A stretch of 64,000 nucleotides of DNA from Styela clava. Its lineage: Eukaryota. The notes beneath the pieces are model-generated. The model ran no database searches, was not told the origin of the DNA, and saw only the letters and a program-made list of their open reading frames with translations. The position numbers and the translations under genes were made by a program. Position 1 is the first letter of the stretch; each line of letters starts with the position of its first letter. The stretch is from contig NC_135251.1 of the NCBI RefSeq assembly GCF_964204865.1, positions 18,848,001 to 18,912,000 on the forward strand, in the 5' to 3' direction. Below are positions 30,700 through 58,068 of the stretch, piece by piece.

Positions 30700-31200
30700 A
30701 ATTTGCTTATCGCTGAGTAGGGATGGCTGGCTGTCGTCGAGATAAAGCTATTTTTTCCTTTCGTCGTCGCAGACCATTTTGCGTGCGCAGCATATATTGT
30801 GAATCTGATTGGCTAAATGAATCCCGACACGCTTGAATGTTCTCTCGTTTCGTCTGTGTTTTCACTTTTGGCGGACCCCACTATCCTGTCCGATAAGATT
30901 TGCTCATCCAATTATCGCTTTTAAGTTACAAGCGATATCGGAAAAGAAACTGCAGTGTGGTGAATCAGGAAGACTGATAAAAAGGGGCCGGATTATCCAG
31001 GTCGCAGTGTCACGCAGGAGCCGTTGGCTGCCCTCACAGGTTAGTAGAAACTTCGCCACATGCGTAAGAGACAGACTTGCAGAGTAGCAGAGCGAGTCGA
31101 CCTGTCGGTCATCGCTCGGTGCCTCTTGTTTTGTTTGTTTCTGACCATATCTTAACAATTTGTGAATGGGCCTGATTGCCGGCAATGTACCGGTAACGTG
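30700..31200 (+). promoter_or_regulatory. CpG-rich candidate promoter / 5' UTR exon of the zinc-finger gene
   Basis: Raised GC and CpG, inverted CCAAT box (CTGATTGGCT, about 30805-30814), donor CCG|GTAACG near 31191, acceptor TTTCAG| at 32216 just before the ATG. Confidence 0.4.
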
Positions 31201-32221: not shown

Positions 32222-35200
32222 ATGAAGTGCGATTCTTGCTCGCTAGTTCTTCCAACTGCTATAAAGTTGTTTGAACACATACAGCAATCATGTTTACTTT
32301 TCTACAAAAGTCATCCAGCCAGTTGGGCAAAAATTTTGTCATCACTTGATTCTGATGAAAGCACTAGCACTGAATCCAAAGCAGTTGCAGGTAAGCAGAG
32401 TTCAATTTATGTCTTGCAATATCAGTAGGTAGTAGTAGTAGTTCTTCGATAACAAGATCTCCTTACTGATTCAATGAAATAAACACAATTCGACACAAAA
32501 AATGTGTGCATCTGGCGGCCGGCACATGACCAAACTTCTCTCCCATCCCCATTCTTTGCTAAAGACTCATTAAATGCTACGGAGAAAATTTTTTCCTTCG
32601 ATAAATCGAATTATATTTCTCAAAGGAATCCAATGGTCACGTTTTTTCTAATGACTTATTACAAAGTATCTATGGCCAATGGCATATTTAAAAAGCAGCT
32701 GGTCCATTTTAAACCATCCTTGAAGCCTTCCCTGACCTTGAAAGCTTTCAATTCCTTCTTCGCATTTCCATAGCCCAGATGAACTTCTAAAGGCGTTTGT
32801 CGTAGAGCATTGTATGCACACAAATTGTTTATTATTTGATTGTAAAGTCGGGAATGCCTATTGGCTTACTAGATTGCACTTTTTTTAGAATGTTATCTCT
32901 TGGCCAAAATTTCTGTTTAATTATAGTTCCTCATCGTCTATTGGCTTACTAGATTGCACTTTTTCAGAATGTTACCTCTTGGCTAAAATTTCTGTTTAAT
33001 TATAGTTCCTCATCCTCCACAAATGGATGCCACATCAACTACTAAATCCAGCTCACCATCACCTTCAAGTTCATCGACAAATAGTACTGGAACTCCCAAT
33101 TCTATTCAGAAAAAAACTAAATGTAAGTTTCTTGTTACAGCTACATATCAATATTTAATTTAAAAATTCAACATATTTAGTTTGCACACAATTGCCATAT
33201 ATATTTCATTTATTATTCATTTCTCATATTTATGAAATCTTTAGTACCTCAAACTCACAGCAGTAAGATGGTGATGTTGCATGCTCCAAAAACTGTGAAC
33301 ACCATTGATATACCATACATTTGTAAGTGTGAAACTTCATTCAAATCGCTGGAACAATTTCGCGAGCATTTGAAAGGTAGGTTATGATTGCTGAAATTAA
33401 GGTAGTGATATTACACTTCATATTTAGTATCTGAATTCTGTTTTTTTTTTTAGTATGTACACTTGGAAAAGAACCTCCGTTCTGTATAATGTTTAAGGGG
33501 CAAGATAATGAAATGCTAAGGCCACTGAAAAATGTGCACATGACAGTTTCCGATTACTTCTATGGCATTGTGGATGAAAAAACGTAAGTTAAATGAACTT
33601 TGAAATGTCAAATCATTGAATCAACACAAATGGTATCACTGTCTAGTTTCCTATTTTACTTACTTTTACACTTGCATTCAAATCTTATCAAGGTTATTTG
33701 ATCCACAGGGTGAAACTTAAAACAGTTAATCGTCGATGCAATTGCTATAGCTGTGGAAAGACATTGCGTAACAACATCAGGTATATACTTTTCTGTTTTA
33801 TATTCCAAAATTTAAACAAAAGTATTGGCGTTTCATGATCGTTAATAAAAATTCATTCAATTTCACTGGTCGCTTTGCTTAGTATTTTTCAGTCATGTTT
33901 AAACTTTATTTATGTCAAAACGGGAGCTTGAAAATCCGCCTACATTCTTTTTATTCATCCTGTTTTCGCAGCATTGGATTAAATTTTTTATATAACTTGA
34001 ACACATTGTTATGAAAGCTATGAAAAATTTAGTCATTAGTAATTGTACCATAATTCACGTCAACTTCCATTCATTGAAATGGATAAAGCCGACACCAGAT
34101 GTCATCAGTTAAACAAGATATTACCAATTTTCACTTATTTACTTAATGCTTTTTTACTAATTATTCAAATTACTTGAAATTACTTTAGATTTATGAGCCA
34201 TCTTCGACATAAAATTATCAATGAATGGGAAAAGAAATCTCCGGCATCTGATATAGTTGTTTGTCAGCATTGTTACAGGCATTACGACTCACCTTTTCAA
34301 TTGCAATGTCATGTTGAAAATGTTCATGGATCTCTTCCAGCTGCATGTTAGTTTTTTTCCATCTTGGTTGCTATGGTTGGTACTGGCCTCGTAAATATTA
34401 TGTGAAGGTAATTCAAGCTGGCCAATGTTGTCTCAGTAAATTGTCTACAGACTCTTAGCAATCTGGATATATGGCTGCCATTCCAGCTTGTAAAATTGAT
34501 GATCTATGCTCACTCATTTGAGTAAAATATATTTAAATTAGGAATGCAATATTTTGTGTCTCAAATGTGCACCTTATTGAGTACATACAATGTACTACTT
34601 GCACCACATGCTCCATTTTTCCCACTTGTACCTAAAACATTTGCCCTACTTACACCATTATCATCATTTGCACTACTTGAAACATACTGTACCATAGACC
34701 CTGTACTGTTTCATCACTTGCTCAATATAGCACTCGCACCACATACAGATAAACCGTGTGTTGTAAGTTGTACAGGGACACGATTACAGAGTAGTGCAAG
34801 CGTGGCGAGTGGTGAGTGTTTCGAGATGTATAAATGGTGCAATCGCATTGCAAATGGGAAAACTGACCCTAGTGGTGCAATGGATGCAGATGCTAAGCTG
34901 GAGGTGGTGAATTTGGTACAAATGGTGCTGTTTACTAGCACTTGAGTCACACTGATAAACTATATAATTTATTTCTTATCTCTTTATCAGATGTTTATTT
35001 CGAATCTGCACTATACCATACTGTGACATAGATCGGCCTTCAGAGTTTCTTCTAATGTTTAACGAACGTCTACACATAATACTCAATCAAACATGTATCT
35101 TTTTATAGGTTCATGCAGAATCTGTGAACTTCACTTTGTATCAGAAAGGACATTCCTTTTTCATATGAAAGATAAACATGTTCACAACGAATTGCCATAT

Positions 35201-38200
35201 GTTTGTAAAGTCTGTATGTATCGATCTTCTCACTACAGTGATGTGATTAAACATTTCAGGTATGCTATGTTGTTGATAAAACAATGGATATTTGGATAAA
35301 TTTGTGTTGATATAAAATTATAAAATCAAAACTCATTTAGCTTTTCAACAAGTTAATTATTATGTTGACATCTATTGTCACTGAATCTATACTGCTGGTA
35401 ATGTATTGGTTTTCATGTGGAACATAAATAGTAATGGCAATTAAACAATTACTTTTACATAGATAAGACAAGATCAATTTGCTGCTTTAGGTTTATTGAT
35501 AATTTTATATCAACAACTTTATTATTATTTTATCATCTTTTTGGTTCATTCAGTGTGTATTACCCATTTTCTGCTTTTTTATGCTTATTGAAAATTTTAT
35601 ACCAAAATATTTATTTATTTTTTTGTCATCCTGGCTCTTTCATTGTATATTTCCTATTGGGGAGTGGATGAGGAGTATGATGAGAATAATTTTTAAAGTA
35701 AAGGTTTGCAACCTGTGATTCCAGTATCTTTATGCCCATTTTTCTAACCACTCGTAATAGCAATAATACTTTCATCTTTAATTATGATCTACTATATCAG
35801 TTTAAACATAACAAAACAATTTTCATTTGCAGGGATGCTCACACAGATACTACAGCCCTGATGTGTCCGTTCTGTTTGACTGTCTCCTACAATGCCAATT
35901 ACTTCCTGAAGCATGTTATTCAGCATATCGTAAGTCATTGTTTCTGTAAATTACATAGAAAAATAACATAGAATGTCAGTTCACTGATGACTGGTTCGTT
36001 TTCAGAAATCCTCAGCTGATTGTTACCGGTGTCGCCTTAAGTTTGTCAATATCAAGGATCGATCTTTTCATATACAGACTGATCACCAGTCACAGACTAT
36101 AAAAGAAAAGGCAAAGAAATTTAAGAATCTAAACAAGTGCCAGGTTCGTTAAATATTGCTCAGCTTGGATGGCCACCGCATCTCTGCTTACCCTGCGTAG
36201 GTTCGCAGGTTCGAATCCCATGCGGGGATGGTTATGTGCGAGAGGATTGCTGTACTCCTTGCCGCAAAAAAGTGGTTCATGTGACCACTGGTCAGTTACG
36301 GCTTCCTCCACCATCAAGTTGATGCTTCCGAAAACAAATAACTGGCGGACTAATCCCATACCCGACCTGGACTGGTAACCGGACGGGACGCCGTGGTTCG
36401 CCATATGATTGAGCAGTCTTATCCTATCCTAATGTGCTTTTTATTATTAGTGATTTTTGAATTTATTTACACGATTTCATTTCGAATATTTTTTAGGTTT
36501 ACGTCAGAGTTTCTCCATTACAACTCGCACATCGACAAAATTTATTGAATAAAACAAAAATGTTGAAAGATCAGATTGAATCTAATTCAAGTGGGGATTC
36601 TAGTCAAAGTGGGTATTAATTAAGATTTGTAAAATCCTATTTTCCTATCCTTTCTGAAGTTTGATAACCGGAAATGTTATATTACAATGATATATATTAT
36701 CTGCAGCAGCATAACAACATCATACTTCATTATTATTAATGAAAGTGGGATTGAAATTAACTTCATTAGGTTTGCGAAACAAATCTTATATAATGCTCAT
36801 TTCTTGATAATTTTTAGTGGTGTTTTTCTTTGTACAAACAATGCTCGCATCTGCAGAGTTTTGAGTCTATCTATTGTACGACTCTCACAACTACCAGCAC
36901 CTTGAGTTATGTTGCGATCCGCTCCATATTTTTCCTACACATGTAATAAAGTTTACAGTATTTTACAAGGGAGTTGTGTGCTACTGATAGTCGCCCCTGC
37001 AAAACGAAATTCTGCAGTTAAGTTTGATTTGTTTATTGTAATTTATCTTATACAGAACCGATATTCTCGATCTCATTGCTACCCAAAAAGCAAAATATTG
37101 AAGTAGCAGGTGCTTTGACTGGATCATCAGTTGAAACAGGATCACCAGTTGCAAAGAAGACGTCTTCCATTCCAAATGTTCAATTGCCTGCTTATCTCAG
37201 CCCTCTGAAACGGCCGACAAGAATAAAAAAACTCAGGTAAATTGTTTAATACTATCAAATTGCTAAGCTATCTTTTCTTACCAATATCAAACAATTTTGG
37301 CAATGTATTGGATAAAACTCCAGCCAACATGATTTCTGTACATCCCCAATGATTTAAATTTTTTCATGTGCAATAGAAAATATGTGAAAAAACAGTTGAT
37401 TTGGTGTTGGACAAATGTTGAGATGAATATTGACGCAATCATTTTTCAATTTTCCTTGATTACTTGAAATCAACTAAACCTTGTTTTCTGTGTGACTGAC
37501 GGATGGCAAATTCTAAAAATGATGGATTTTAAATAATTTCTAAAATCATTTACTTACTGTAATTTCCGGCCATAAGTCGATTTTCTGGACCCAATTGTTT
37601 GGTTAAATTTTCTGAGCTCTGCTTATTGGGTAACCTTTTATCAATTTTGGACTGGAAAAGGGTGACGATAATGTGCCCTTTTTGTCAGTTTCATGGATTG
37701 GCTTTCTCACACTGTGAATCTGAAATATCTCCGCTGTGCCTATTTGAACTGACAAAAATGACTAACAGGGAAAAAAGTTTCACAATTTTCGAACTTGCCT
37801 ATTGGGAGTTAAAATATGGAAAAGCCATCATTTTTAGTGCTAAAAATTCACTTTTCACTTATCCGCTGAGTCAGATGACTCATTAGCCAGGAAATAGGGT
37901 ACTTTATTGAACATAACATTTTTCACATAGTTGAATATTGGATTTATATTTGAACATATAAAAATTTATATTTTTACGTTCATTTTACATTTCTGCCTGT
38001 ATTTTTATTCAACAGAATGACACCGAGGGAATTTTCTGTTATCAGATGTCATGAATGCCAAGATTCTATTACAATCGAAACTGATCTTCTAAAACATTTC
38101 AGTCATTATCATGAGTGCAGATGGTGTGTTTATGTAACTGCATGTGAAAAAGCCTCACATAATCATGTTCTCAAGTAAGTTAAGTTTTCGTTTGGTTTGC

Positions 38201-41200
38201 CTGATTTTTAATTTCTTAATTATAGTTATATCGGTTTTTATTGTAGTATTTTGACTGTTTTGGTATGATATTGATAATCACTCTTCTCAAATATATATAA
38301 TGTAACCTAATATGTTGATACAAAAGTTTCCTTGAATGACAGCCAAGTGCTTAGCGGCGCCAAATTATCACAGAAAAAACTCACGGCGCACTTGCACGGA
38401 AAAAATGAAGCTTTTCAAATAAAACTCAATTTTGGTATTGCTAATGTGTACTTTACGCATTATAAAGTTTTTAAACACAGAGGCATAAGGAATAAAGGCA
38501 AATTGTCAACTCTTCTTCCTCATCTCTGCTTGATTTTCATTTGAAATGCTAGAAAAATCACCCACATTTGCTAAACTCGGTTCAGTAGATATATGAACTG
38601 CAGCTCGCAAAATTGCACCAAGTAGACACTACGTAACAGGAAGTAAACGACATAGAAAAGATAAATAAATTTATTGATTTATATACACAGCATTTAAAAT
38701 AAGAAACAAAAAAACATTCATAATAAATACAATATCTAAAATATTCTGTTAATAATTGCGGCGCACCTATCAACTCGTCACGGCGCACTAACGCGACATG
38801 ACGTATCCTTTAGGAACCGCTGGCTTAGTAGATTCTATACAATGTGTCAAATGGCTTTAAAGTTGATCGCTATTTGCAGGTTTGAATGTCTTTTTTCATA
38901 TCCATTTGATTTCACCTATTGGAAATGGTAATATAAATCCCATGGAATGATTAGTAATTTTTTATGCTTTTATCAGAGAACATGCTGATGCTGAAATGCG
39001 AGAAGAACTCACTGGAAGAGTTGAAAAACCCGAGTCTCCAATACTTTCATCTGCTATGGTAGATGAAGAAGAGCAGCCTACACCGCAGGTTAAGAAGGAG
39101 CCCACCATTGAGGTGACCATCAAATATAGTAGTCAATTATGACTTTTTTCACGCTTTTCGCGCGAAACCTTTTCCTTCAAAAAGTCCGGGAGTCTTTTCA
39201 GTTCGAATTAGTCTTACACGCTCGGTGAGCTGACTGAGGGGGCATGGGATTTGGACCAAAGATGTCTAATCTGCGATTTTACTGCCAAACAATCGCGCCA
39301 TGCAAAGCTCTGAGTTCATATTGTTTTGGTGACTATCATCTGATTTCTATATTTTCATTTTAACAAGGTTCCCGATAAGCAATTGCTACCACCAACAGCA
39401 GAAGCTACAGAGGAAGAAACAACTAAATCAACGCTTGTTAATAAGAGGTAAGATGCATCTTCTTTGTAGTGTAGTTGAAAGCCTTTAGCATATATTCCTG
39501 ATAGTCGTTCCACTCAAAGCAGGCATTTTGTCAGCAGGCTGGTTTTTTGTGGTTTTAACATCAAATCCATCAAGTCAAGTTTATTATATCTTGATTCTTG
39601 AGTCAGTACAGCGGTTGAATTCATAACATTGTGCTGCCAACAGCAACAACATAGGTCAGTGCTTTTTACCTTGGGATCCGCAGAAGTTCTTCCAGTCCAG
39701 TCCAGAGGTTTCGCAAGTTTCCATTCAAATCTGAGAGTCAATTTTCACATACGTGCACTTGAAGAGCATAAGAGTTTGTTTATATATATATATATTGATA
39801 GTTCACACAATTCTCACAAATAAATATTGTGAAGGGAAGGGGTTTTTCAAGCTTCTGAAGGTTCCGCTCCAATCAAAGCGGTTGAAAACCTCTGTAATAG
39901 GTCAAAGTGTAAAATTACATCAGCACATAGTGTTGGAGATTACTTTTGTGTAAGAAGTATTTCATATATATAGTATTCAATATATCCACTAATCAAATAT
40001 TTATAAGAAAACAATCCCAGGTAAAGCTGGAATTTTAGTAGTTTCATTTGCCAATTTGTTCAAGGTCTAGTAAATGGTAGCCACTAGGTGTAGCTGTAAC
40101 TTCATAGATTTCATGTACTTTCCTAGTCAAGAAATAATCAAATCTTTCAATGCAGTTTTCACAAATTATATTTTTGGGAGTCTATTTGTAAAACCACAAA
40201 CCTTTTGAAAAAGGATGGTTTGGTTTTGTATTGTGTTGTTGTGTATACCGATTAATTTCCAATGCCATAGTTGTTAGTAAATTTGCCTATTCAACTAGTC
40301 ATTGCATATTATAGATCAGGGATGTCCAACCCGCGGCCCACAGGAAAAATTCGGGCGGCCCACTGGAAGAATTCGGGCGGCCCACTTGAAGTTTTTTTCA
40401 TAAATACGGACATATAAACATAATTAACATAAAAATTCCCTGGTATGATAACAAATCTTACTAGAATTTAGGCTCTAATTTCACGCGACTCCGCCATCAG
40501 AAAAGCGTTGTTTAGCGCCACAGAACATGATTTTACAGCGGGCTCAAGCGTGCAACATCTGTGTCGACACAATGAGTTTTCTACCCATTGTGAAGTCATT
40601 AAGGTTGAAGTCACATACCGGTACTGTGTTCTATCGATGTTGTATCACGAAGACAAATCCACCAGTATGTCTGGAAAATAGATGGAGCTTAAGGATGCAA
40701 ATCGGAAATATCAAAAGGATTGGGAAGAGTTGTAAGCAACGATGGATACCTAATGTGCCATAAATCTGTTTCGAGCTTGAAGTCGTATAATTTGAAAATT
40801 ATGAAGTTGAAGCATAGGAGTATTCGGAGGAACGAAAATTTGACAAGCCGGTTAGTTACATTGTGTGGTATCAAAACTATCCGTTGATATTAAACAGTTG
40901 AGCAATGACAATCAAAAGCAAGTTTCGAACTAGTTGAAGAGAAAGATTGCTAATTTTATTTTTTTTTACACCAATGTATGTGCATTTTGCATAAAATTTG
41001 AGTTGAATATCATGGTCTTTGTGTGCATCTTGTGTTCAGAAATCCGCAAGTATGTTGTTGTTGTGCAATATTGGCGTTTGATTTAGCGACGCTCAAATTC
41101 TAACGTAAATCGGAATTGGGTTGCTATTTAAGTTTGGTAAAAACGTTTGCGGCCTGCAATGAATTTCCCCATGTGAAAGTGGCCTGCGACACTAAAACAG

Positions 41201-44200
41201 TTGGACATGCCTGTTATAGATTCTCTTCAATCTCAGTTGGGCCACCTTATCTATGTCAACCACTTGGCTAAGGGTGCAATGAATTAGTAATACAGAATTA
41301 TAATGGTTATAGAATCTTACAAAATCATATATCTTCTTACTGGCTTATCTTGAGCCTGGTTCAGAGCTCTAGAGGTAAGGTATAAAACATATTGTAAAAT
41401 GTGCAATCTACATTATCAGTTTTTCATACTGTTGTCCTAATCCATTCCTTCAATTACAACAATCTCATGTAAAGGTAGCCTATTTTCTGCGCTAAGTCTG
41501 GAGTATAATTCTCTGTTGAATGTCATGTGCAACAGTGCAAGCATCTAATGCTATTCAACGCAATGTATTTTTTCTTTTGAAAGCATTGTTTCTTTTGTGC
41601 AAAATCATTTTCCAGAATCAATATATTTATTTTAAAATACTTTTAATGATTACTTTCACAGTTTACACTGTACAACTAGGAATAATGTACCCATCGTCTC
41701 TCCACATTTATTTAAGTTTACAATTTTTTTTATACATTTTTACTCCTAATGAGGCACTGTTATATATTATGCTCATATTTTTGGTTGAACTGAAATCTTT
41801 CTGATTGCCATTGCCTATCAAAGTTGTTACTCACTGGGTAAAGTGATGAGCATGGAGCTTGGACCAGAGATATCTGAACCTACGATGTCAATACAGCTGA
41901 AGTCCAACCTCTCTAACCAATTGGCCATCATTTTCTTCCCATTTTCTCAACATTCTCAGGTTTTGTAATCAGATACCATTTTTGTAAATATCCGTTTTAT
42001 TTTTGAAATTATGCAAAAATCTTGAAGCAGCACAATCATGCTATGATAGAAATATTTACGCGAAAATATGTATAAAAACATACGCTATCCATGTAATTAT
42101 GGAGTGTCAAAAAAAAAAAATCGTTTTTGATAATTCGTTATTAATAATAGCCTATACATGATAACATATCTTGTTCATGCAATTTGCTTGCTTGAATGAT
42201 GACAAGAGGATGAATGTTCCCTCTCACATCGAGTCCTTAAATAAAGCATAAACGATTCCGAAAGCACTGGATAAGCTGGGCTAAAGTTAGCTAGCTACCA
42301 GTACTTTTAGGACAGCTGCACTTTGAAAATAATTTAAAGTTGTTCTGTTGAAGATGAACATCCATTTACGTGTTCTTTCCAAAGTATTCATCAAAGGCTT
42401 TGCATTGTTAGGGCATAAAGAGAGAGGAATTGTTAAGGGGTCAAGGGTTGGGAAAAACATTCATTGTCATGATTTCTCATAGTATTCAAGTCAGTTATCC
42501 TGTTTGTCAGATATATTATTATACAATATACAAACAAAGTTTTTCACAACTTTGGTGTTGTGAAGTTGTGTCGCTGTTAGTCCAGCTCTTTATCCTTGCA
42601 GTTTGACGGTTTTCATTTGATGTTTGTTGCAACTTTAAAATGTTTGAATCCAGCTGTCAGGTAGAGTGGTGGAAGTATAATCGGTGCTCCATAATATCGA
42701 GTACTTTCGAATGGTAGTTGCTCAATCTTTTTTGGCTTAAAGAAAAAAAAATTCAATTAAAGACATAATTTTCAACTTATTGGAAAAAAATTGCTTTTCT
42801 TAAAAAACTAATAGAACAATCATTTTGTAATTTTCAGTACTCTGAATATGATTTAGTCGTTAGAAAGCAATTCTTCATTTTTTTTATATTTTCTCCATGA
42901 GATTCAATATACCATTCAAAATTTCCGGTGTTCCTATAAATATTGCATCAGCGCCCATTCTTATGTCAAACAAATTCCACATTTTTCATACAAAATCGTT
43001 GTGCTCTGCGGTCTGACCGGTACCTATTTGTGATTGCACAATGGTATTTGTGATTGAGTGATATTGTTCACTTTGCCATAAATGATGAAAATATTGTAAT
43101 TGCAATTTAAATTAAATTAGGTCATGTTCCCTATTTTTACAATCGACTTCTGGTTCATTGGTTGTCCTATATTACTAAATGTAAAGATATGCTAATTGCA
43201 TGTCCTTCCTTCCACGGTGTGTCCTTGTTGAATATGCTTAGTAAGTAAAAAGTGTATACCAATAAAAAAAAAACCTAAACGCATTTTGCATACTACAAGT
43301 TTTACAGAACTTTCACTAGATCATAGTCTAGCTTCGTCAGATATAAATTCTAGTGTGAGTTAGTAATACTGTTTATCTTACCTCTGCAAGCTGCTTCAGT
43401 GGCATTTCTTCTCCATACAGATGTGTCTCAATTGTGTCAAACTTCTGTACTCTCAAATCTGTCTGGTTTGTTGCTGCCTTTAACATTGTTGATCCTGAAT
43501 ATTAGTTACATGTAAATTATAATTTTGTTACACCAAATAACATACATCATGTCTAAACACATTACAACACCCTAAGTTACTGTTTAATAGAAGAAAAATA
43601 CTTTACACACCTGTATTTTTCTTTTTTGTTGTGTAATGTAGGATTTCTTTTTCTTTTTTGGTAATCAAATGGTAATCTTACTTGATAGTAGATAAAAACT
43701 CAGTTCAAATATTTAATGTGTTATCAAGTTGATATACAAGGCAGCTTTATTTACTTAATCTGTAAATTCAATTTAGTATGATTTAAAAGATTGAAATTAT
43801 GTAATATACATACATCTTCTATAAATATCACAAGATAAAAGCTTAAAAGGTAAAAAAGTATTTTATACACAAATCTTATTTTATGTAGCAACATTAAATA
43901 ATTACTTGAATGATAGAATTTAGAAAAAGTTGGTTTAACATCGGCTGGATTATGATAAATAGGCAAGTATCACGTATATATCTTAATTTTGATGTCTCAA
44001 ATTTCTTCAAAATATTTTCGTTGCCTGATTCTGTAAATCAAACATAACATGAAACAGAATTCAAAATTATCATCTATATTTTATATATTGATCATGTATT
44101 CATTTTAATTTTAACTTCTAAAGTTTCTCCAAAATATTATTTGTATTTGTATTTATTTTTCTCATCTCATAAACTCTTTTTAGATAAAGTTAACTTTAAA

Positions 44201-47200
44201 TTTTGAAGATCGAAGAATTTTGCAATGTTGCCTTTTTTAATAGAATATATATATAATGTCAGGCACTAGTACAAGTCATGAAACTTAAATAGTATGTGAA
44301 CAAGTGCATGAAATAAAAACAAAGCTTTATTCGATGAATATCAATGTCTTGATATAACATCAAACTGAAACTGTATTTTAAAATGAACTACACTCTTCCA
44401 ATATTGAAATTTAGAAGTCTAATATTAAAATTTGGAATGCTTCATAAAGACATGCTACCCTGCAAGGCATTTCTCAAATAATACTAAATATTGCATGAAT
44501 TTTCTCTCTTATCATCCACTTTGTATCCACAATGAATGGCAATTTTATTCCCAGATCTGTTTATATACATATGCTCGTCCATCTTCATAAAGTCATATCA
44601 AGTTATTAGAAATTTGCGTAAGATGACATCGTTGTCAACATTTATCCAAAATTCAGTAAACATGTTTCTATCTACCGTGAGATAAAATTTATGTTTCGCT
44701 CACACATACACATATTGACGTCCTTTTGTCACTATAATCCAGGTGTTTATCATGTCACAATAGCATTTATTATCGAGTCACCATCACACTATCCACCTTC
44801 TTATATTTCTCCAACTCATATTGAACAAACAATGCCCTCCCCTTTGTAATAATGACAAGTTATGTCACCGACTTTATTACCCTTGCCACAGAGTTCTTAA
44901 TTAAGCTCCTGAATATGTAAACATTACCAGGCCAATAAGCTTTGTAACCACAACTCATAAATCACAATTTATTGAGAAACACATGTTACATGCTATGGAA
45001 TGTGTTTGATCACAATTTACAATGACAGATATTGAGACTCGTGAACATGTCATTGTTTTATAACAGCAAATAAGTTTTAAATAATTTGTTATTTTATTAT
45101 TTGAGGGGGGGGGGGGAGAATATGTTCTAAATTTGGCCCCACTCAACATAGGACAAGATATGTTCATTGAGAATTGGTAAAGTTCTCATACTTATTTTTA
45201 AATTATTCCGGACATTGAATATAAATAATTTAAAATTGATTTAAATCAGTTTTGAACAACCCTGATATTTTGCTTTCCAACCTTTTGATTTTATAAATAC
45301 CAAAATAATATTATGTTACTTGCAAATAATACTAAAATCCTGCATTTCGATCACATTTTGCAATACTAAAAAAAGAAGCAATGGTGCTCACTTTCCATTG
45401 GCTATAGATTTGTAGTTTTACAATGACATTATTTTCAAATGTTATCCCAAGATGACAATTTTGAACATTGCTATAGATTGCATTTGAATGATGCACTTAT
45501 TTTAGGGTTCATATTCATGGATATACAATTATAACAGTTTGTAAAGTTTACAGAATTTGGTGAGGCAAGACTCTCTCTACATTACAGCTTAGTATTTTCA
45601 ACAGTATCAATTTCATGTGTAAAGTTATGTTTGACGTTTCTCAGACACCAGATCTTTGTTTTAAAAACAAACTAAATACTGCTTTCCGCTTCTATATTAC
45701 AATAAATAGTCAAGTAGGTTTATTCATAATTTCTTAACAATCTTAAAATGATATTTTTGATTACGTATTAGCATTGTTCAATGTAATTTGATACTGTTGA
45801 AATGGTGTTGTCTGTATTAGCGATGATGTCCTGAATTTTTATATTTGGTTGTTTCTCCTGTGTTTTCCATTCAATTTCCTGTGACTGTTCAGATTATTGT
45901 ACGTCAGAGCTTGTTTAATACTTTTCAAATGAATAATTCCTATTTGAAAAATGCTGTAAAATCACTGTCATTTTTGGTGAATTAAATTTTGTTGACAAGT
46001 CTATGAAGAATCATCAGCTAATATTATGAATATCAAGTTACTTACGGTATTTCTCCTGTGTTTCCCATTCGATTTCTATCAGTTGTTTAGATTATATATT
46101 ACATCAGAACTTGATTTATAGTTTCCAAATGAATAAATCATAATAAAAAATGCTGTAAATCACTGTCTCATTTTTAGTTATTTAATCTTAGTCACAAGTC
46201 AATGAATCTTCCAATATTACTGATATTAATAATACACATACTGTTGATCTAGCTTCCTATTTAATAACAAAGTTCTTCAATGACCCCAACGTTGACAGTT
46301 AGTGTAAATATGCTGTAACATCATGTCTGGTAATTTGATAAATAGTTCAAATATTTGTTATGATCTGTTTCCCAGAATCTTCATGTATTACGTTATAAAG
46401 TTGTGTTTAACATAAATTGGTTATGGCAGTGGTGTCTATCTAAGTATAGGTATAGCTTATGCTTGATATAATTGTATTAGTTAGGAGTGCTCAAATATAT
46501 TGTAACATCTTTAAACTTTATGATATTGTATAAACTGATCACACAGATGAACCATTGTTGGGCAACATGTTTGCTTATCAATAAAATGAATTATTCCAAT
46601 AATGATCATGTTTGTTATATAAAGCTACCCGGGACAAAATGGTTATTATTGCAAGCTTCGAACTCTGACATAATTTCAGGTTTATATTCATTTGATAAAA
46701 ATAAGTCACAGTATTTCTGTAGCTGGTTTGATAACCATAAACATTCTTAAAGCCTTTCCAACCCATGATAATAAAAATAATTCATTTCTTTGTCTCAAAC
46801 AATTATTGAACACAGTGATCTTTTATTTGGAATAGTCTAATTCAACATTTCCCAATTTCCTAACCTGGAGGTATGTTGTTGTTCTTAGGGAAGAATTTGC
46901 TATGTATTTGCTGTGGTATTACTAATATTCTCTTATTATTTATCATTACTAAATTCCTGTTTACGCACACATTATGCAAACATTATGAACTACTTGAACT
47001 CGAGAAAGGGGGAGTGCGCAATTTGCGCAAAACACTAGCTAAGGTTCTATGAAAGATTGGACAAATAATTGGACAAACTTGATCTATAGAATATATTTCA
47101 CCTCGCAACCTTCATTTTTCAGTGCTGATACTTCAAAAGCCCGCCGCAAGCAATCAAACCCAATGAAAATTAAGAATAGTGGTAAGACCATCTATGTCTT

Positions 47201-50200
47201 TACTTAGAGTAAAAAAGATTTTTTTCTCATATGCCTAAAATGGAGCCAAGTAACCAAATGATCGCTTCAGACTAGTTGTTTATATAATAGCGGGTGTGGT
47301 CTATCTTTTCAAATTTTTGATTTTATATTAGGATATGTAGAGCTTGAAATTTTATTTCAATTTAGTTTGTGTTTTTTTTATACTTTCCTTTAGATTTTCC
47401 AAATTCTCCTTCGCCGAAAAGAGTCAGAAAAGACAGAAAAGTTCAAACAAAAACCTTTGAAAAACAAAGAGGAAGTCAGACCTTCGAAAGTGATTTTGCT
47501 GGTGCTGATGCAGAAGAAAATTCAAACTCTACCTCAGTGCAAAAAGGACGCAGGTTGTTTAATTTTCAATATGAAGGGTGTTCAGTTTTGATTCCAGGGA
47601 TACAAAATATTTTTACATTTTGATTGTTTTGAAGCACTGAGATGGCACACAACCTGAACATAGTATGTGTACCAGGTTAGGGTTCAGACTGTACGTTATC
47701 TTGGTGCACATACTTCGGGAGCGCCTAATCTGCTTTCAACGCTTTAACCACTAGGCCATCAAGCCAAACTGACCAACTTGAGCCCCAAATCTTGCCCCAA
47801 TCAGCATTTTCTGGAGGATAATGTATTTCCATATCTATATAGTTTCGGTAGTCCATGGTATTACACTGGTTGCCTCAGTCTCTTTTGCTTCTGAATGTGT
47901 GTAACGTTGCTTTAAGTAAGAAGGATGTGCAAGCGCTCAGACGTCTCTCAAACTTTGCATTTATGAAACAATACTTTTTTTGTTTTCAGTACTCCTGCCC
48001 GCAGTATTCTGAGTGAGGATGGGGTTAAAATAGGAAAACGAACAAGTACTTTCACTCCTGCTGTAAGAAAAAGAAAAATCTTAGCACCTGAAGGTTTTTT
48101 CCCGGACATAGAAGATGATGCTGGTAGGTAGAGCAAATTTGTAAAATATCGCCCACAATGCAAAAGGACCAAAACTCAATATTTCACTGCTCTGAATATA
48201 CTGTGAAATATTGTTTACAAAAATAGAATATTGAATGTATTCTGAGATGGTAATTGGTAATCATTGGACACAAACTAAATGTGACCCATGATGGCATAGC
48301 AGGTTAAAATCTCTGGCTCATATCCCATGCTCACGACCTCACTCACCCAGGCTGTAATAAACTAGGTAGGCAACGCCGAATCAAAAAGATTTTGGTCATT
48401 CCAAACTAGAGTGTCTCCTTATCTAGTAATAGGAGCTTCTGTCTTGTTCAGAGTATAAATAAGTTGATAGAAAAATATTACAAATTATGTTTGCTAATGC
48501 GTAATGTTTGAGATAGACATTGTTTTGATCAATATTCCATTTTTTAAAATGTAAGCAATAAAAGTAAGTTTATTTTTTGTCTGGCCCTCATATGTCAAAT
48601 GCTCGGCATGGCAAATTTTCAAATGAAAAATTTTATTGATTGTGAATATACGATATCGAATATGATCAATTTCGAAAGTACTTGAGTATTGAATTTTGTT
48701 TCAGACATACCTAGCTTTGTAAAAACTATCTTAAAGGTAAAAGATCATAAATAAAACGATGATAAAATGGGTTATGATATATATGTAGTAGTTGTAATCT
48801 TGGTTATGATATCGCTAATGGTCAATCCTATTCTACTAATACTACAAACTTATTTTTTCAATACAAATTTTCTCAAAACAAGGCCCCGGTCTAGTTTGAA
48901 AAAATTTCTTTAATATTGCAAGTTACCTTGTTACACTTAATTAGCAATTCACAATATTCTCTCTGTTTAGGTTGGGCCAAATACTTTAAAGAATGCGAGG
49001 ATAAAACTCAATCGGATAGTTCTTTCAATATAAAAGTTACAGTACCAATGTCCGCACTTCCTACAATGGTGCCTATTCAAACAACTGTTAACACACAACT
49101 GAAGTCTTCCAATTCTTCTATCCTGACATTTCGTAAGTAAATGTGTTTTAGTTAACACTTCTGATTTGAAACCAGTGGTTTTATCAGGAAGCCATGTGGC
49201 TGCAAAATAGTTTATTTGTCTTTTATTGCCTGAATTGTATTAAATATGAATATATAAATATAAAACCAAACCTATTACTGGCATAATGAAGTGTTCGGTA
49301 ATGTGTATCAATTTTAATAAAACTGGCAAGCCTATGGCTATTTTATTTGAATAAAACAATATAACGTACATTGATATGCACTCTTGAATTTGAATTGAAA
49401 CTTTCGAACTCCAGTTGGAAACTACTAATTTAAATGCTTGCATACAAATGAACCATCAGTATCGCTACCGTTCACTTACATTTCGTGTATTTTATTTTTC
49501 ATTGTTATTTCAAAGATTGTGGTCTGTGCTTCAGGATTAATTTTTGGGGTTTGTACCAGTAATTAGATAAAAATGTCCACGATCCATTGTCCAAGAAACA
49601 TGTTTAACAGAACTTCTACCAAATTAAACTTCCAATAAGCTGTGTCACCAAAACTTACCCTATACGAAACGTTTTTCAGTCATCAGAGCGAGAGGTTTTT
49701 CCATGAATTTGAGTTATGTAGAATTTGGCACCTCATTTCTCTTTTCATGATGGTATTGACTTGAAATGATTATTCTATTATTCACTATCATATATATATA
49801 TTTTTTTCTGAGCGAGTGTGCATGACCTTGCCACAAGGACATTCTCTCAAAATATCTCAATATCATCTTTTTGTCAATTCAGAGAAAAAGCTTCCAACTA
49901 CAATTGCTACCCCGGGACTGAAAAATGTGGCATCTGATGAACAAGGTGCTAGTCCAATCGCTGGTCTTTCTACAGTTGTCCGAAAAGTTAATTCTGATAC
50001 GGCTGCAATTTCTCCTGGCAATGTTGTTATAAGTAAAACCAAGCTTGCGACAAATTCTAATAACAAACCAGTCTATCAATTTCATATTGTACCTAAAAGT
50101 CAAAAGAATAAGCCAACACCGAGTAAGTTTATATACAATAAGTACCTTATGTATTCACATTTTACGGCTAATAAGCCAAGGTAACTTTTTAGCACCGAAA

Positions 50201-53200
50201 TAAGGGTTTTTCTATATTACCATCCAGTGAGCCGACTGCCGAGGCAGAAAATTTGTGATACGGTTTTCTCTGATTGTCAGTTAAGCACCAATTCTTGGTC
50301 TATCTTTATCAGTTCTATTTTCCTTGGTGAAGCGTCAATGAGCTTCTCCGTCTTTGACGTGTTTACAGTACACGTGCCAAGCGCATTTTTTTCATGGGTT
50401 GCACACTTGACGATATTGTTAATTGCTTTTGCTCATGATGCACGCACAAATACGGCAACATCAAATATAGTAGCAGCAGAGATATTCCAGATTCACACTA
50501 TGAAAATGCCAATTCATGAAACAAACTGAAAAGGCAAATTGTTGTCCCCCTTTTTTATTATATTCTGGTTCAAAGCTAATAAATAGTAACCCCAGAAAAA
50601 TCAAATAAGCTTACCCACTAAATCCGGCCAAAAATCGGGGGTTCAAAAATTGACCTATTAGCCTGAAAATACAGTATATATATATGTTGTTTTGTCCTTC
50701 GTACAAACAGTTTTGCATAGTTCATCCTTACCCCTCTTTTTCTACCCAACATCTGGAAAGCACTTTGCCTACCTATCTATCTAAGTGAATGTACCTCTTG
50801 TTTTATCCTTTTGTTCCTTTACTTTACCCGTTATCCTTTTTATCCTTAAGTTTTGTCCAACATTTAAATAAGGGGGCGCATGCCCCATATTTGTGTGTTA
50901 GGCCATCATGGACTTGTGAAAATTTAAATTAAATTTAACTATTTAATGTTCTTATTTTGGGTTATTTGTATGTATTTTTGTAACAATTTTTAATACATCT
51001 AATTTTTTTTTTATAATTTCTATTTCAGTTGCTCCAAAGCACAATCCATCTTCCACCCAGCCACTGTTTGGTTTAATAAATAAAGTTCAAAGCATGTTAT
51101 CTCAAGGTAACTTATATACATGTTACCTATGTTTGTGTCACAGAATTGAGAGGTTCAAGGAAATAAAGCACAAGATTACCTTTTTCTTAAGTGATTGTCA
51201 TCGGTGCACCTAGCTGGCTAATTTCCTTTTGTTTCTTTATAATGATAAGATGATTTTTTTTTGCCGAAGTATACTTGTGAGCTTTCTTTAGAATACAGTT
51301 TTATGTCCCAAGATTATTAGAGGTTCAAGGTGATAACTAAAGAAAGGTCAAATGAAATCTTTCAAATATACTTGCTATTTTATTGAAAGAGATTATGTTA
51401 TTCTTGTATAATATCTCATTCAAGTATCTTTGTAGCAATTGCTACAAACACATTTGAAATGGAAAGTAAAAACAAGAAGAGAGCAGTTTATTAATTAATA
51501 CACAATATACTAGTATTATCTACCCCCCCCCCCCCCCCCTAAAAATAAATAAATAAAGAATTGGCGGTGCTCTACCATACACTTGTATGTAGTGGTAAAT
51601 GGGTTATTGGGTTATCAAAAAAAAAAGCGTGCCAAAGTTTCATCAAACAAATGACAACTTAATTATTTGGATAAAATGCATTCATTCATAGCAGCAAAAT
51701 GTTGTCTTACTCTATAGCAGCCTATATTTTCGGTAATATACATTTTGCTATTGCTTTGGTATTTTGCTATTTATATTATGCATATATTCGGCTGGAAAGC
51801 ACTGTTCTAATACTTTCATATCTTTATTTCTAGTACCACGAACACCAGTAGATCTAAGATGTCTAGAAGTGACTCACTCTACTTTACTAGTACAGTGGGA
51901 TGCTCCGATAAACTGTGTTGTAACTCATTACAAAGTTGTTTTCCAAGGTAAGATTTCAATTTCTGTTTTTGAAAGGATAGATATTTATATTTTAAGTTTT
52001 TATATTATGGGTTATTACCAAATACATTCTTTTTAGGTGCCGGGGCCCCAACAGTTCAACTTCTGCCACCCGAGCAAACTCTTGTCAGACTTGTTGGATT
52101 GAAGTCAGATACTATGTATGTCGTTCGTGTCTACACACTTTACAACCAATCTGTCAGCCAATATGCTTTCTTGTATCAAAAAACAAGTAAGTTTTGGATT
52201 TTGGATTGATATATTGCGACTTGAAGTGCGAATAACTAAAATTCTGTCATGAATTTTTATTGAGTTAAATAATATATGGTAACAAATTTTATGGAGATTT
52301 CTCTCAAAGAAAATTCACACACACTCACTTCAAAGAAAATAAGGCTTATCTCTGAACATATTATATACGACCAGCCGACCACTGAAAGGCTACTTAAAAC
52401 TAGTTCCAATTATGGTGGTGGATTATGCGCTAGCAAATCCAAATTGACATAATACTTGGAGCAGTTGATATCAATACGATCAGAAAAACAATCATAATGA
52501 GGTGAACTAAACTATTGGGTCTGGATACAAATCTGACTAATCAGCCTGCTGGTATATCTGAACAACATGACTACTCAAGTTAAGTGCATTCAGAGTTCTT
52601 CATGCCATATGACTAGGGCTGTCCAAAATCGAATATTTTTTTGATTCGAATCGAACCGAATATTTTTCTCACATCGAACCGAATAATCGAATATTATTGC
52701 GCAATCCTCCTAACTTTGTCTCTAATGTACAATAAAAACTTCCTCTCCAATATTGTGATAACTAATGTGCAGTTATATCTAAATTATTGCAAATATTTTG
52801 CATAACTATGTTTTCAGAGTTATAAAAGGAGATCACAAGCTTCCTTGAACTGGTCAAAAAATTAGTTTTGAAAACTATCAAGTGTTAAGAGTTGGAAATT
52901 GCACAGACTCTTTGAATGCCCTTAGTTTGATGACATTATTAGTTGATGACCATATTGTTGCTGTACAACAGCCATCAACTCACAAGAGTGCAATTATTTG
53001 CCATTATTAGTAGTAAATGAATGATACAAAGTGTTGCCATTGGAAGAAATTACACATTCTTTTGAAAAAAGGGTATTGGACCTCCAAAACGTGTTTCAGT
53101 CTTGTACCATGTTCCTATGATTACTAACTCAGCTTCTACAACTCCCTGTTCCTGCGTCAGTAACTGTGGCGTCAGTAACTGTGGCGCCATCAGAATTTGG

Positions 53201-55909
53201 TGGCGATTCTATTTATAGAACTGGCATTTTTGCTGATACTAAATTTGCCTTTTTCTTCTTGCGTTCTCTCAAAAAACGTCATCTTTAAATCATTGTTACT
53301 GTTATTCATTGTAAACTTTTTTCATTTATGACCATGCATGAAATGGATAATTACATGTCACCGGGCAATAGGAGAAACTTTTTTACAGCAAAGAAAGCGA
53401 TAGAAACATGTTTTTGCTTGTCCCGTGTAAAACGTGGTGCAAAGGTGGTCGTGAGGCGCATTATGCACCAAATTTTAGCGATTCATAAATTGGCCGAAAA
53501 ACGCTTTTAATAATTTGCGATTCGATTTCCAATATTCGGTTGGCTTGGACAGCCCTCCATATGACTAATTTTGTCACCAGAATTACTTAACATCACTATA
53601 ATATTTGAATGTAATATAGAACACAGGCTGTGTAAAACATTGTGTAAAATTATTCATTGCTTTCTCCATTTTTAGATAAGCTTCGTGATAGCACAACTAA
53701 ACCAGTAGATGATGTTGTTCTTGTGCTTGATGACAATGAACCATTAAATACACTACATGGTACGATGCCTACATCTAAAAAAGAAACGGCAACAACTAAA
53801 AATAACAATGGTGCTGCTAAGACCACAACAACTGTAGAGAAATCTTTTGTACCAGCGACAACATCAGTCTCTTCGCTGACATCTACCAGCCATAATTCGA
53901 TAACCACTGATCAACAACAGGCTTTGAAAAAACAGCTGCAAGACGAATCTGAGAAAAAAAAGGTTATTAATGAATTGCTCGCCGGTTTCAAGAAAAATAA
54001 ATATCAAAAAAATAAAACGGTAAAATCGAATATAGGCTTGAGCGCTGCCACTGAGACTGCTGGGAAGGAAACATGTATCGGGAAAGACAATCGACCATTT
54101 GAGCAGGCTGATGCCAAAGCAGTGACTGATGAATTGAAAGCAGATGTTGATAACGAGGTGCTCTCAAATGCACCTGCCTCTCCTGAAGTAACCATAGTGG
54201 CAACATCGACAATAGGATGTGTCACTGGCAATAGCAAACTAATGAACAAAACGGAGGACCAGATCAATATTGTTAAAGTTATTCCAGCAAGTAACCTAGC
54301 AAGCACTGACAAAAGAGAAGAGATGCATGTGTTAATTGATTCACTAAACAATGGTTCGATCATATCAACTAAGGAAAATAATGCTGAGAAATCAATGAAA
54401 AGTCCTGATGAAATTAAAGACTCTACTGCAGTATCTGAAGATGAGAACAATATTGTTAAAATTATTCCAGCACGTAACCAAGCATGCACTGACAAAAGAG
54501 AAGAGGTGCATGTGTTAACTGATCCACTAAACAATGGTTCGATCACATCAACAGTGGAAAATAATGCTGAGAATAAAACGGAATCTCTCGATGAAATTAA
54601 AGATGTTGTGGTAGTTGGTGAACTACCACATACTTTATTATCTGATGATCAGATCAATATTGTTAAAATTATTCCAGCAAGTAATCAAGCACCGACTGTT
54701 GGAAGAAAAGAGGTGCATGTGATAACTGATTCGCCAAACGTTGTATCGACCATGCCAGCAGCGGAGAAAGAAACTGGAACTCTTGATGAAATTAAAGATG
54801 TTGATGAACTACCGTATACTGCAGTATCTGATGATCAGATCAATATCGTTAAAATTTTTCCAGCGAATAACCAAGCATTTACTGTCGAAACTGAAGAGGT
54901 GCAGGTGATATCCGATACACAAAACGATGGCTCAATCATTTCAACAGTGGAAAATAATGCAGGCAATAAAATGGAAACCCCTAATGAAAATAAAGATATG
55001 AATGAACAACCACATACTGCAATATCTGATAATGCCATTACCTTAACTTTGCATCCAAACAGCAATGTCTCGAAAAATGCGATAGAAATTTGCGATGAAG
55101 CCGATCCAGAGTCAATTGAGACATCTGATCTTCCTACAAATCCAGTTTCTTGTGAGACCCCTAATTCTGATGAAACTGAAGAAATTAGCAGTAACAATGT
55201 CAAAGATGACAAAGAAAACATGCAGCCACAGACTGACGATTGCGACTTGGGATTTAATATTGTAAATATTGTTAGCTTGAGTAATCAGTCGAAAGTCGAA
55301 ACTAACACAACAAACTATGGTGGTGATGAATTAGTGGCAACTGAAAGGAGTGATACAGGATCTGTGAATATTTCGCAAGAGGATATTTTACCCAAAACAT
55401 CATCATTACTTTCCACAAATTTGGAAGCGTCAAACAATGAAAAGGTAAATAATCAGGATAAAAAAGCAGGAGGCTTGAATGCTAATGATATGATGGAACT
55501 TGATGACTGTTCGACAAATTCTGAACTGAAAGACGAGAACATAAGTTCAAAGTCCCCTACATTTTCATTGCCAATTTCACCAGTACCACCAAGCCTAAAG
55601 GTGCCTTCTACATCGACTTCTGATGAAGACACCACTGAAACAGAAAGAGCTGATGAAGTTGCTGATTGTGAAGACATCATATTGAATCTGGACGACTCCC
55701 CTATTCTACAAACAGAAAATGACAGCACGGATTCGGATAATGAAAATAATCCCGGACCTGATGAAAGGGAGTTGATGATAGAAAAAAATAATGAGAAAGA
55801 TGTGGATGAGGTGCAGTCAATTGTAAATCAACAAACTTCAATTTGTGATTCAACTCCTACACTCGATGACATCAAAGATATCATAAATGAAGATCTGTCA
55901 TGGTTGTAA
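32222..55909 (+). CDS. POGZ/ZNF280-family C2H2 zinc-finger protein with NuRD-binding motif, FN3 domain and acidic repeat tail (about 1720 aa); no pogo transposase domain
   Basis: Exons: 32222-32390, 33006-33122, 33245-33376, 33454-33583, 33709-33780, 34189-34346, 35109-35259, 35833-35929, 36006-36143, 36497-36608, 37056-37236, 38016-38174, 38977-39112, 39368-39447, 47123-47181, 47394-47553, 47990-48123, 48971-49132, 49883-50122, 51029-51106, 51834-51947, 52037-52186, 53676-55909. Total 5163 nt, open frame. POGZ/ZNF280 signature peptides: [115 protein letters not shown]...[17 protein letters not shown]. The join across the 7.7-kb intron is inferred from matching phase 2. Confidence 0.85.
32858..33014 (+). 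repeat. 79-80 bp tandem duplication spanning a splice acceptor
   Basis: CTATTGGCTTACTAGATTGCACTTTT...TTTAATTATAG|TTCCTCATC occurs twice, giving acceptors before 32927 and before 33006. Confidence 0.9.
34565..34935. repeat. Degenerate foldback-like element built from short repeats in inverted arms
   Basis: The left arm is rich in (CTT)GCAC(CA/TA) and the right arm in TGGTGCAA/AGTGCAA, with a sharp C/T to G/A strand-skew switch near 34750. Confidence 0.55.
36169..36431 (+). mobile_element. SINE family A copy, 5' truncated
   Basis: GGTTCGAATCC B box, shared body and ATCCTATCCT tail. Confidence 0.8.
37557..37899. mobile_element. Tc1/mariner-pogo-like MITE
   Basis: TA|CTGTAATTTCCGGCCATAAG ... 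TTAGCCAGGAAATAGGG|TA; a related inverted copy lies at 50154-50674. Confidence 0.55.
38338..38822. mobile_element. Degenerate hAT-like MITE
   Basis: CGGCGCA(C) subterminal motifs clustered at both ends; right terminus TTAGGAACCGCTG. Confidence 0.5.
40317..41213. mobile_element. hAT (Charlie/Buster-like) non-autonomous element, 897 bp
   Basis: TIRs CAGGGATGTCCAAC / GTTGGACATGCCTG; 8-bp TSD TTATAGAT; duplicated GGCGGCCCACT subterminal motif. Confidence 0.9.
42613..43486 (-). CDS. Putative nested antisense small gene (2 coding exons, 75 aa, unknown function)
   Basis: Exon 43494-43382 (TTCAG| ... GAG|GTAAG, ATG at 43486) joins in phase 0 to exon 42735-42613 (strong T-tract TAAG| acceptor, TGA stop). 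Possible UTR exon at 43759-43682. Confidence 0.35.
45852..46230. repeat. Diverged tandem duplication, period about 198 bp
   Basis: Blocks TTTCTCCTGTGTTT.CCATTC, CAAATGAATAA, AAAATGCTGTAAA(A)TCACTGTC and ACAAGTC.ATGAA are each present twice. Confidence 0.75.
47630..47726. mobile_element. Partial copy of the Merlin-like MITE
   Basis: GATGGCACACAACCTGAACATAGTATGTGTACCAGGTTAGGG ... GCACATACTTCGGGAGCGCC. Confidence 0.65.
48288..48430 (+). mobile_element. SINE-like family B copy (others at about 4240-4330, 6335-6400, 11070-11185, 23370-23466, 39215-39300, 41803-41930)
   Basis: Shared GCAGGTTAAA..TCT..G.TC(A/C)AATCCCATGC.CA...CCTCAC.CA..TGTAATAAA...GGCAA...CCGAA.CA motif in either orientation. Confidence 0.55.
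50154..50674. mobile_element. Tc1/mariner-pogo-like MITE
   Basis: Ends ATTTTACGGCTAATAAG ... CTATTAGCCTGAAAATACAG|TA; shares TTTTAG(C/T)(A/G)C and TCCA(G)TGAG blocks with 37557-37899. Confidence 0.55.
51834..52186 (+). other. Fibronectin type III domain (two exons) within the zinc-finger gene
   Basis: [38 protein letters not shown]|[42 protein letters not shown] carries the FN3 consensus P..L, conserved W, Y.V and L.GL.P/S.T.Y.V.V. Flanking and internal introns are all phase 1. Confidence 0.85.
52614..53557. mobile_element. hAT (Ac-like, TAGGG ends) non-autonomous element, 944 bp
   Basis: TAGGGCTGTCCAA ... TTGGACAGCCCTC; 8-bp TSD CATATGAC; TCGAAT/TCGAACCGAAT subterminal repeats. Confidence 0.88.
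54257..55030 (+). repeat. Four in-frame coding tandem repeats (periods 183, 207 and 186 nt) in the terminal exon
   Basis: Units begin at about 54257, 54440, 54647 and 54833 with D(Q/E)(I/N)NIVK(V/I)(I/F)PA.N.A....EE(V/M)(H/Q)V(L/I).D; clear nucleotide-level similarity between units. Confidence 0.9.
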
Positions 55910-57139: not shown

Positions 57140-58068
57140 TCAATAAATAACTTTATCACATAGTTCATTTGTTAAATCATAAGTAACTCCTTTCCAAACA
57201 AATTTACTAGGTAACTCAACAGTCTGTCCATCACTCAGTGATGTGATTTTCACTGAATCGTCGAATACGAACCCAGAACTAATATCAATAGCAAGTGAAG
57301 ACTTGATCAAACCTATTCCACCATACCTATCATGACAAATATGGTAAACTCGACCAGTGTGGGGCAGCATGCACAAAGTTGTAGGCTCAAAAGGCAAAGT
57401 TAGTTTATCTCCAGCACCACCATAAGAAAGTAGGTATTGTACTCCCCCAGAATCCAGTTCAGTCTTCTCTATAATATGGGTATAAACAATTGGGTAGTCA
57501 TCACATCTGAAATGAAAATAAAAGTATGACAACACACCTAAAAAGAGGAAAGACCTGGTGATATTGATGAAAACAAATTCTCACACCGGTGTCAACTGTA
57601 TTATAGTAAGACATCAATAGCATCTCACTGACCAACTTGGTGAGCTTATCGTAAAATGATAAGTCATTTTTGTAAAAGTAAGAAGAGGTAACAAATAGGT
57701 AATTCAATACTGTTTATGTACCTTATAAAATTTCTCTCTCTCCCACACAGTGATAAATAAGGAAATGAGTCCTGGTATCGACCAGTCACATTCCCTTTTA
57801 TTCGCCTGAAGAAAAATTCCAAAAAAGGTTTGTCTTTGAAACATGTGATAAAATTTTTCACTTTAGTATCATCAAGAAATAATTGACCTTGATGATCAAT
57901 ATAATAAAAGTATTCTCTTATATTTTTTTCTGCATATTGTCCTTGTGTGTACGCTTTGTTTGCTGCAGCATTTGACGAGTAATTGCATCTTATAGCTCCG
58001 ATTACTGTCAGCTTTCTTATCAAATTTTTGAAACACTGACTAGAATAATTTGTAAGACAAGAAACCAT
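57140..58068 (-). CDS. C8orf82: UPF0598 protein C8orf82 homologue (DUF4505), 2 coding exons 58068-57722 and 57506-57140
   Basis: Conserved YTQGQ....REYFYYIDHQGQLFLDDTKVKNFITCFKD.PFLEFFF and FPYLSLCGRERNFIR|CDDYPIVYTH, plus GRVYH and GIGLIKSSLA. Phase-2 GT-AG intron. The basic N-terminus resembles a mitochondrial presequence. Confidence 0.93.

Follow-up and report, generated by a model that had tools for sequence, protein, structure and literature searches.

We find that a POGZ/ZNF280-family gene of the ascidian Styela clava (LOC120335338) carries a short internal coding exon which is real, constitutively spliced in and frame-shifting, and that the RKQxxPxK motif encoded by it, going by analogy with ZNF512B, probably binds RBBP4/NuRD (a reading to which we assign a probability of roughly 0.78). 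Internal RBBP4 motifs are already known as such, and the POGZ-family carrier is a real and conserved new example of them. The gene lies in the window, i.e. the whole 64-kb stretch of DNA analysed here, and its features were placed through exon joints, two of which (32390|33006 and 47553|47990) come from contig pieces and a loose end rather than from the joints listed.

32222..55909, plus strand: coding sequence of the POGZ/ZNF280-family gene LOC120335338 (23 coding exons, 1720 aa, model identical to database protein P0002)
30919..31039, plus strand: non-coding first exon (joint 31039|32217; its 5' limit is the end of one contig only)
33709..36143, plus strand: exons of the POGZ-type C2H2 zinc-finger array (about aa 183-388)
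38016..38174, plus strand: zf-POGZ double-finger exon (aa 496-537; PF25429 at 24.6 bits, below the cut-off of 27; no HPZ-type finger after it)
39368..39447, plus strand: upstream neighbour exon 15, set by its joints
39448..47122, plus strand: intron before the motif exon (7675 nt), containing a spliced minus-strand transcript
47123..47181, plus strand: motif exon, coding exon 16 (59 nt, phase 2 in and phase 1 out, aa 611-630)
47136..47171, plus strand: putative internal NuRD-type motif K616-A-R618-R-K-Q-S-N-P624-M-K626-I627 (register from ZNF512B K419-F430, as given in passages of PMC11602157)
47394..47553, plus strand: downstream neighbour exon 17, set by its joints
51834-51947 and 52037-52186, plus strand: fibronectin type III (FN3) domain (aa 889-976; two symmetric phase-1 exons; PF00041, E 2e-9)
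53676..55909, plus strand: last exon, of large size (encodes an acidic, internally repetitive tail of low complexity)

A homology search with the Styela protein returned 741 proteins at E<=0.001, and among the best 120 of these every protein with a name, Styela itself aside, is a POGZ or ZNF280 of a vertebrate (E about 1e-53, 30-36% identity), in line with the POGZ-family assignment made in a first-pass annotation of the DNA. With vertebrate POGZ and ZNF280C/D the ascidian protein shares the C2H2 zinc-finger array and the zf-POGZ double finger by which the family is recognised (in Styela the latter scores 24.6 bits, short of the PF25429 cut-off of 27, which the relatives P0126, P0205 and P0206 exceed). 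It differs from them in lacking both the HPZ-type ninth finger and a Pfam CENP-B/DDE transposase part (no Pfam match to CENP-B HTH or pogo DDE in P0002 or its orthologues P0123-P0126, and no transposase tag on any of these) and in adding an FN3 domain, an acidic tail and the NuRD-type motif. The resulting order is zinc-finger array, zf-POGZ double finger, 355-aa linker (with the motif at 618), FN3 (matched over aa 893-966) and acidic tail. The Ciona intestinalis 'zinc finger protein 36' (XP_018668256.1) is an orthologue of the same layout and with the same motif, of which its database name makes no mention.

As for the FN3 domain, its best PDB match is fibronectin, and an ATF7IP-type assignment was rejected because the PDB matches (best 60 of 65) are fibronectin and monobodies. 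A fibronectin-like FN3 domain within a zinc-finger protein is kept across tunicate-type orthologues, and exons 19-23 are all of symmetric phase 1, as exon shuffling would give. Directly after FN3 (53676-53730) comes a hydrophobic-then-acidic stretch (VVLVLDD in Styela) that is similar in four orthologues and that we take to resemble a SUMO-interacting motif. Elsewhere in the gene, isoform X2 is without the 132-nt exon 4 (33245-33376), and the internal repeats of the last exon (53676-55909) vary in length among database entries (1720 versus 1782 aa). The intron at 39448-47122 houses a nested antisense spliced transcript (42109-43700, minus strand; GT-AG introns 42736-43381 and 43495-43610; 75-aa ORF) with a contig depth of 3 in run X1 and 857 in X6, for the two pieces of which no Pfam match was obtained. 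High-copy intron repeats, thousands-fold in contig depth, occur at 47634-47760, 31790-32114 and 36150-36420, the last two being copies of one SINE-like element, and two ORFs of a convergent neighbouring gene (57140-58086, minus strand) presumably resemble C8orf82/UPF0598.

The motif exon is the shortest among the 23 coding exons of LOC120335338, flanked 5' by a pyrimidine tract ending in AG and 3' by GTAAGA. In spliced contigs of public runs, its two joints (39447|47123 and 47181|47394) are seen in 6/6 different RNA-like runs from three studies (X1, X2, X5 and X6 in one set; X3, X5 and X8 in another) and both are absent from the DNA-like run X10 (0/1), which bears out the earlier claim that the exon is spliced in. 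These seven runs were examined among 13 listed; the label 'RNA?' was given by guess, none of them being on record as RNA, and their RNA status follows from joints that remove GT-AG introns which X10 keeps. Omission of the exon shifts the frame and leads to a stop at codon 633. No exon-skipping joint is found among the joints listed; contigs drop rare forms, and a minor form that skips the exon is possible. The model built from the joints equals P0002 at 1720/1720 residues, in agreement with the reading frame that the first-pass annotation had set from both neighbours, and the motif is present in all three database isoforms of the gene. We rejected the possibility that the motif marks the start of a gene or isoform of its own, given that no ATG precedes the motif in the exon, that single contigs span the zinc-finger exons through to the motif and that the fused layout is conserved. 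The 3' contigs of the gene are ~1.3-1.6-fold deeper, a depth which, being taken from contigs, offers no basis for interpretation.

RRKQxxP occurs once in the six-frame translation of the 64-kb window. Genome-wide, the back-translated pattern (which also admits Ser codons) gives 395 matches versus 375 for a control, i.e. ~one per Mb, and since the DNA pattern alone is not enriched, the case for the motif rests on its conservation. Against 50%-identity representatives, an orthologue search gave 904 matches, and among the best 150 of these the four best after Styela come from Clavelina, Phallusia, Ciona and one ENA record (P0126). All four orthologues (P0123-P0126) have zf-POGZ and FN3 and, always between these two, a linker motif (KQRRKQLKPQKL, KQPRKQLLPKKF, NPRRKQLLPQKV, KKRRKQDNPAKK) at positions within 490-707, compared with residue 618 in Styela; including the latter, the motif-bearing set spans three ascidian orders. 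While RKQxxPxK is found in 5/5 long orthologues (Styela, Clavelina, Phallusia, Ciona, P0126), RRKQxxP is confined to 4/5 with PRKQ in Phallusia, so that conservation of RRKQxxP, a check named in the first-pass annotation, holds for its core and fails at the first Arg. The alignment of the 355-residue linker has eight invariant columns, five of which are R619, K620, Q621, P624 and K626, and the motif is thus far better conserved than its flanks, a check on which the first-pass annotation had made its proposal depend. Alignment-free enumeration agrees, with RKQ..P.K as the sole gapped pattern of five residues that the five linkers have in common, and with all five shared four-residue patterns being subsets of it. 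None of 60 locally shuffled linker sets shared any four-residue pattern (0/60), figures that measure conservation rather than independent recurrence because the five orthologues have common ancestry.

Outside the tunicates, 259 relatives contain RKQxxPxK once (sardine POGZ, at a different position) and RRKQxxP not at all. Likewise, among the 119 other relatives in the best 120 of 741 matches to the Styela protein, vertebrate POGZ and ZNF280D are without the motif (RRKQxxP 0/119; loose RKxxxPx[KR] 1/119). Hence the idea that a POGZ-family protein has gained the motif stands with respect to vertebrate relatives, but the motif is ancient, spread over three ascidian orders and no novelty of Styela. 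An amphioxus candidate, RRKKGLPPPR, was dismissed as it misfits RK(x)xxPx[KR] and is located before the fingers. Within the FN3-bearing proteins the motif is present in 5/8 and missing in three shorter ones on long branches, P0196, P0205 and P0206 (FN3 is clear in P0205 and P0206, weak in P0196). A quick tree of 141 rows (13/154 candidates had been dropped for short zinc-finger cover) contains long branches, and a careful 20-row zinc-finger tree neither supports nor rejects a clade made up of the five proteins that carry the motif (p-AU 0.34). The flanks of the motif are of low complexity and consist to 77-84% of disorder-promoting residues, and the AlphaFold2 model of P0126 has the motif in a segment of pLDDT<50; as expected of an internal NuRD motif, it appears to sit in a disordered region, by composition in five proteins and by AlphaFold2 for P0126 only. 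The 21-aa exon peptide had 0 matches in the PDB. A second short linker motif, ~PSMxNPYxF, was noticed in P0123, P0124, P0125, P0126 and P0205 (four, plus a looser form in Ciona) and was not found in Styela.

To which class of NuRD motif, then, does this one belong? PMC11602157, in the passages available, distinguishes an N-terminal consensus, RRKQxxP, from an internal one, RK(x)xxPxK/R, and cautions that a match to the motif may in many cases not mean NuRD binding. Styela RKQSNPMK (619-626) agrees with the internal consensus, whereas its location at residue 618, in an exon with no ATG ahead, is not that of N-terminal FOG motifs (residues 3-9). According to the same passages, mutagenesis of ZNF512B shows R422, K423, P427 and K429 to be essential, R421 to be dispensable and Q424 to be needed in part; K419 occupies a shelf used by FOG1 R3. 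In ascidians the residues matching the four essentials are invariant and the first Arg varies (Pro in Phallusia), with a K419-equivalent Lys in 4/5 orthologues and a hydrophobic F430-equivalent, too, in 4/5. ZNF512B (PDB 8TX8; PMC11602157) and the Styela protein are alike in that both are nuclear proteins with multiple zinc fingers and have an internal RRKQxxPxK within a disordered linker; all four essential positions agree, as do, for 4/5 orthologues, the Lys ahead of the motif and the hydrophobic residue behind it. The two belong to unrelated zinc-finger families, and binding has been measured for ZNF512B (Ki 19 nM) while that of the ascidian protein is inferred. As to the N-terminal RRKQxxP of FOG1, SALL, BCL11 and Ush-B (PDB 2XU7), the FOG-1(1-15) sequence relied on in the first-pass annotation agrees with a passage of 10.1101/303537, and RRKQSNP and IK of Styela do match it. 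Yet this SN..IK likeness is confined to Styela, Phallusia is without the first Arg and the conserved core is RKQxxPxK, which leaves the asserted FOG1 resemblance valid for one species; nor does a usual N-terminal placement of NuRD motifs set this exon apart, internal ones being a described class (PMC11602157, same passages). So judged by its residues, the motif fits the internal class (ZNF512B/PHF6 type) better than the FOG1 N-terminus. That the peptide mechanism reaches invertebrates is suggested by Drosophila Ush-B, which, as an excerpt of PMC7891773 has it, binds dNuRD via its N-terminal motif.

How the exon came to be there is a separate question. It might be the captured first exon of a FOG/SALL/BCL11-type gene, an origin that is compatible with NuRD docking and that we hold to be unlikely. 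Five M[SP]RRKQxxP loci (L041, L042, L052, L060, L061) resemble first exons of genes with an N-terminal NuRD motif (the remaining matches are mostly one repeated element), and 4/5 carry a phase-1 donor-like site (nt 40, 43, 52 and 40), as does the motif exon, which is also preceded by a long intron. Against capture, the extra FOG1-like residues are unconserved and a DNA search of the Styela genome revealed no related exon. A metagenome scan produced four intron-containing loci with near-identical matches that end about 1.3-1.7 kb past the zinc fingers and are without the motif. As phase 1 is the commonest phase in LOC120335338 and the metagenome loci stop short of the motif, the case for capture is weak.

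In the mechanism we favour, i.e. binding to RBBP4/NuRD, RKQxxPxK would dock in the acidic top pocket of RBBP4, as that of ZNF512B does, and bring NuRD to chromatin bound by the ascidian POGZ-family zinc-finger protein. By analogy with the ZNF512B crystal structure, R619 would enter the E231/N277 pocket and K620 the E126/N128/E179 pocket, Q621 and P624 would pack in an uncharged groove, K626 would contact E41/D74/E75 and K616 may stand in for FOG1 R3. On the receptor side, the Styela genome holds two RBBP4-like genes, both of which keep 10/10 pocket residues (from the list in passages of PMC11602157):

L033:481-1785 and L034:637-1761 on contig C3, minus strand: RBBP4-like genes, one an intronless 434-aa ORF, one open over 374 codons

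Both NuRD subunit domains searched for, MTA_R1 and CHDCT2, were found in the genome as well (MTA, CHD3/4/5), so the pocket and these two partner subunits are present for an internal NuRD motif to use. The CHD3/4/5 C-terminal domain (G000:C3:12210474-12210911) falls within an 1848-aa open frame, which suggests the CHD gene there to be nearly intronless.

RBBP4 binding need not mean NuRD, however, because the same pocket also binds histone H3. RBBP4 also sits in CAF-1, MuvB/DREAM and Sin3, and the motif could engage it in one of these complexes, or block the pocket as an H3 mimic, and recruit no NuRD. In favour of this, passages of the literature describe one pocket common to FOG-1, PHF6 and H3 and RBBP4 as part of both NuRD and PRC2. 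We nevertheless consider it improbable, somewhat more so than exon capture, since the internal motif of ZNF512B pulled down NuRD and not PRC2, where the pocket is blocked (PMC11602157, in part), and the conserved Pro and final Lys fit the NuRD-motif consensus rather than the H3 tail. A shade less probable again is a basic patch serving in nuclear localisation or nucleic-acid binding with an incidental likeness to NuRD motifs: the linkers do contain 10-20% K+R and [KR][KR]x[KR] occurs seven times in the Styela protein, but Q and P are invariant and their spacing is fixed, Phallusia has Pro in place of the first Arg, and the four-residue patterns conserved among the linkers include no other basic patch. 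Least probable, and very much so, is a mimic of histone H3 residues 14-23 (KAPRKQL) on which a modifying enzyme or a different reader would act, where RKQL in Clavelina, Phallusia and Ciona (KxPRKQL in Phallusia) is countered by the missing Leu in Styela and P0126 and an invariant Pro that has no counterpart in that part of H3(1-21). All three fit the invariant spacing of Q, P and K less well than docking on RBBP4/NuRD.

If the motif does recruit NuRD, it may substitute as a repression module for an HP1-binding ninth finger lost in the tunicate lineage. Human POGZ, as excerpts of the respective papers put it, binds HP1 via this finger (HPZ; PMC8775410), which comprises residues 801-848 (10.1101/2021.06.28.447216), and an H840A mutant loses reporter repression (PMC7673123). 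In wallaby POGZ a ninth C2H2 match (826-849) comes directly after the zf-POGZ double finger, and a Cys/His finger at this place is found in 96/98 scorable non-tunicate representatives, among them those of amphioxus, a hemichordate and a horseshoe crab, as against 0/7 tunicate-type proteins, whose linkers show no finger-like pattern up to FN3. Scoring covered the best 150 of 904 matches (the other 45/150 were without the anchor pattern or ended too soon), and because a vertebrate-seeded profile missed most invertebrate fingers, their equivalence rests on position and pattern. With the finger so widely distributed, loss in tunicates is the simplest reading; it would have been kept in vertebrates, amphioxus, hemichordates and protostomes, HP1 binding of the invertebrate form being putative. 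A PxVxL HP1 motif as compensation for the lost finger was discarded for being unconserved.

Whether tunicate POGZ/ZNF280 has been rewired as a whole, such that it lost the HP1-binding finger, acquired an exon-shuffled FN3 as well as an internal motif for NuRD docking and now silences via NuRD instead of HP1, is to our minds evenly balanced. P0205 and P0206 have neither an HPZ-type finger nor the motif, so finger loss is not always paired with the motif. On the vertebrate side, CHD4 was not recovered with mouse POGZ from ES cells (PMC9161502, excerpt), and the available text of a cortex interactome preprint (10.64898/2026.07.02.736104) does not mention NuRD or RBBP4; this text and passages of other papers connect POGZ to CHD4 through ChAHP.

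Our literature search (subscription journals and supplements lay outside it) found neither a POGZ-family protein with an internal RBBP4 motif nor the ascidian layout without HPZ and with FN3, nor POGZ work in Ciona. With the ascidian protein, the few internal RBBP4 motifs on record are joined by a deeply conserved invertebrate case, and the RKQxxPxK consensus thereby gains support from evolution, independent of human mutagenesis. POGZ is a recurrent autism and intellectual-disability gene. If true, the swap from HP1 to NuRD would be a natural change of co-repressor in the sister group of vertebrates, and a clean and testable case of a chromatin protein that changes its co-repressor by exchanging a short (nine-residue) module. 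Ciona embryos could then show whether POGZ function needs HP1 itself or any repressor.
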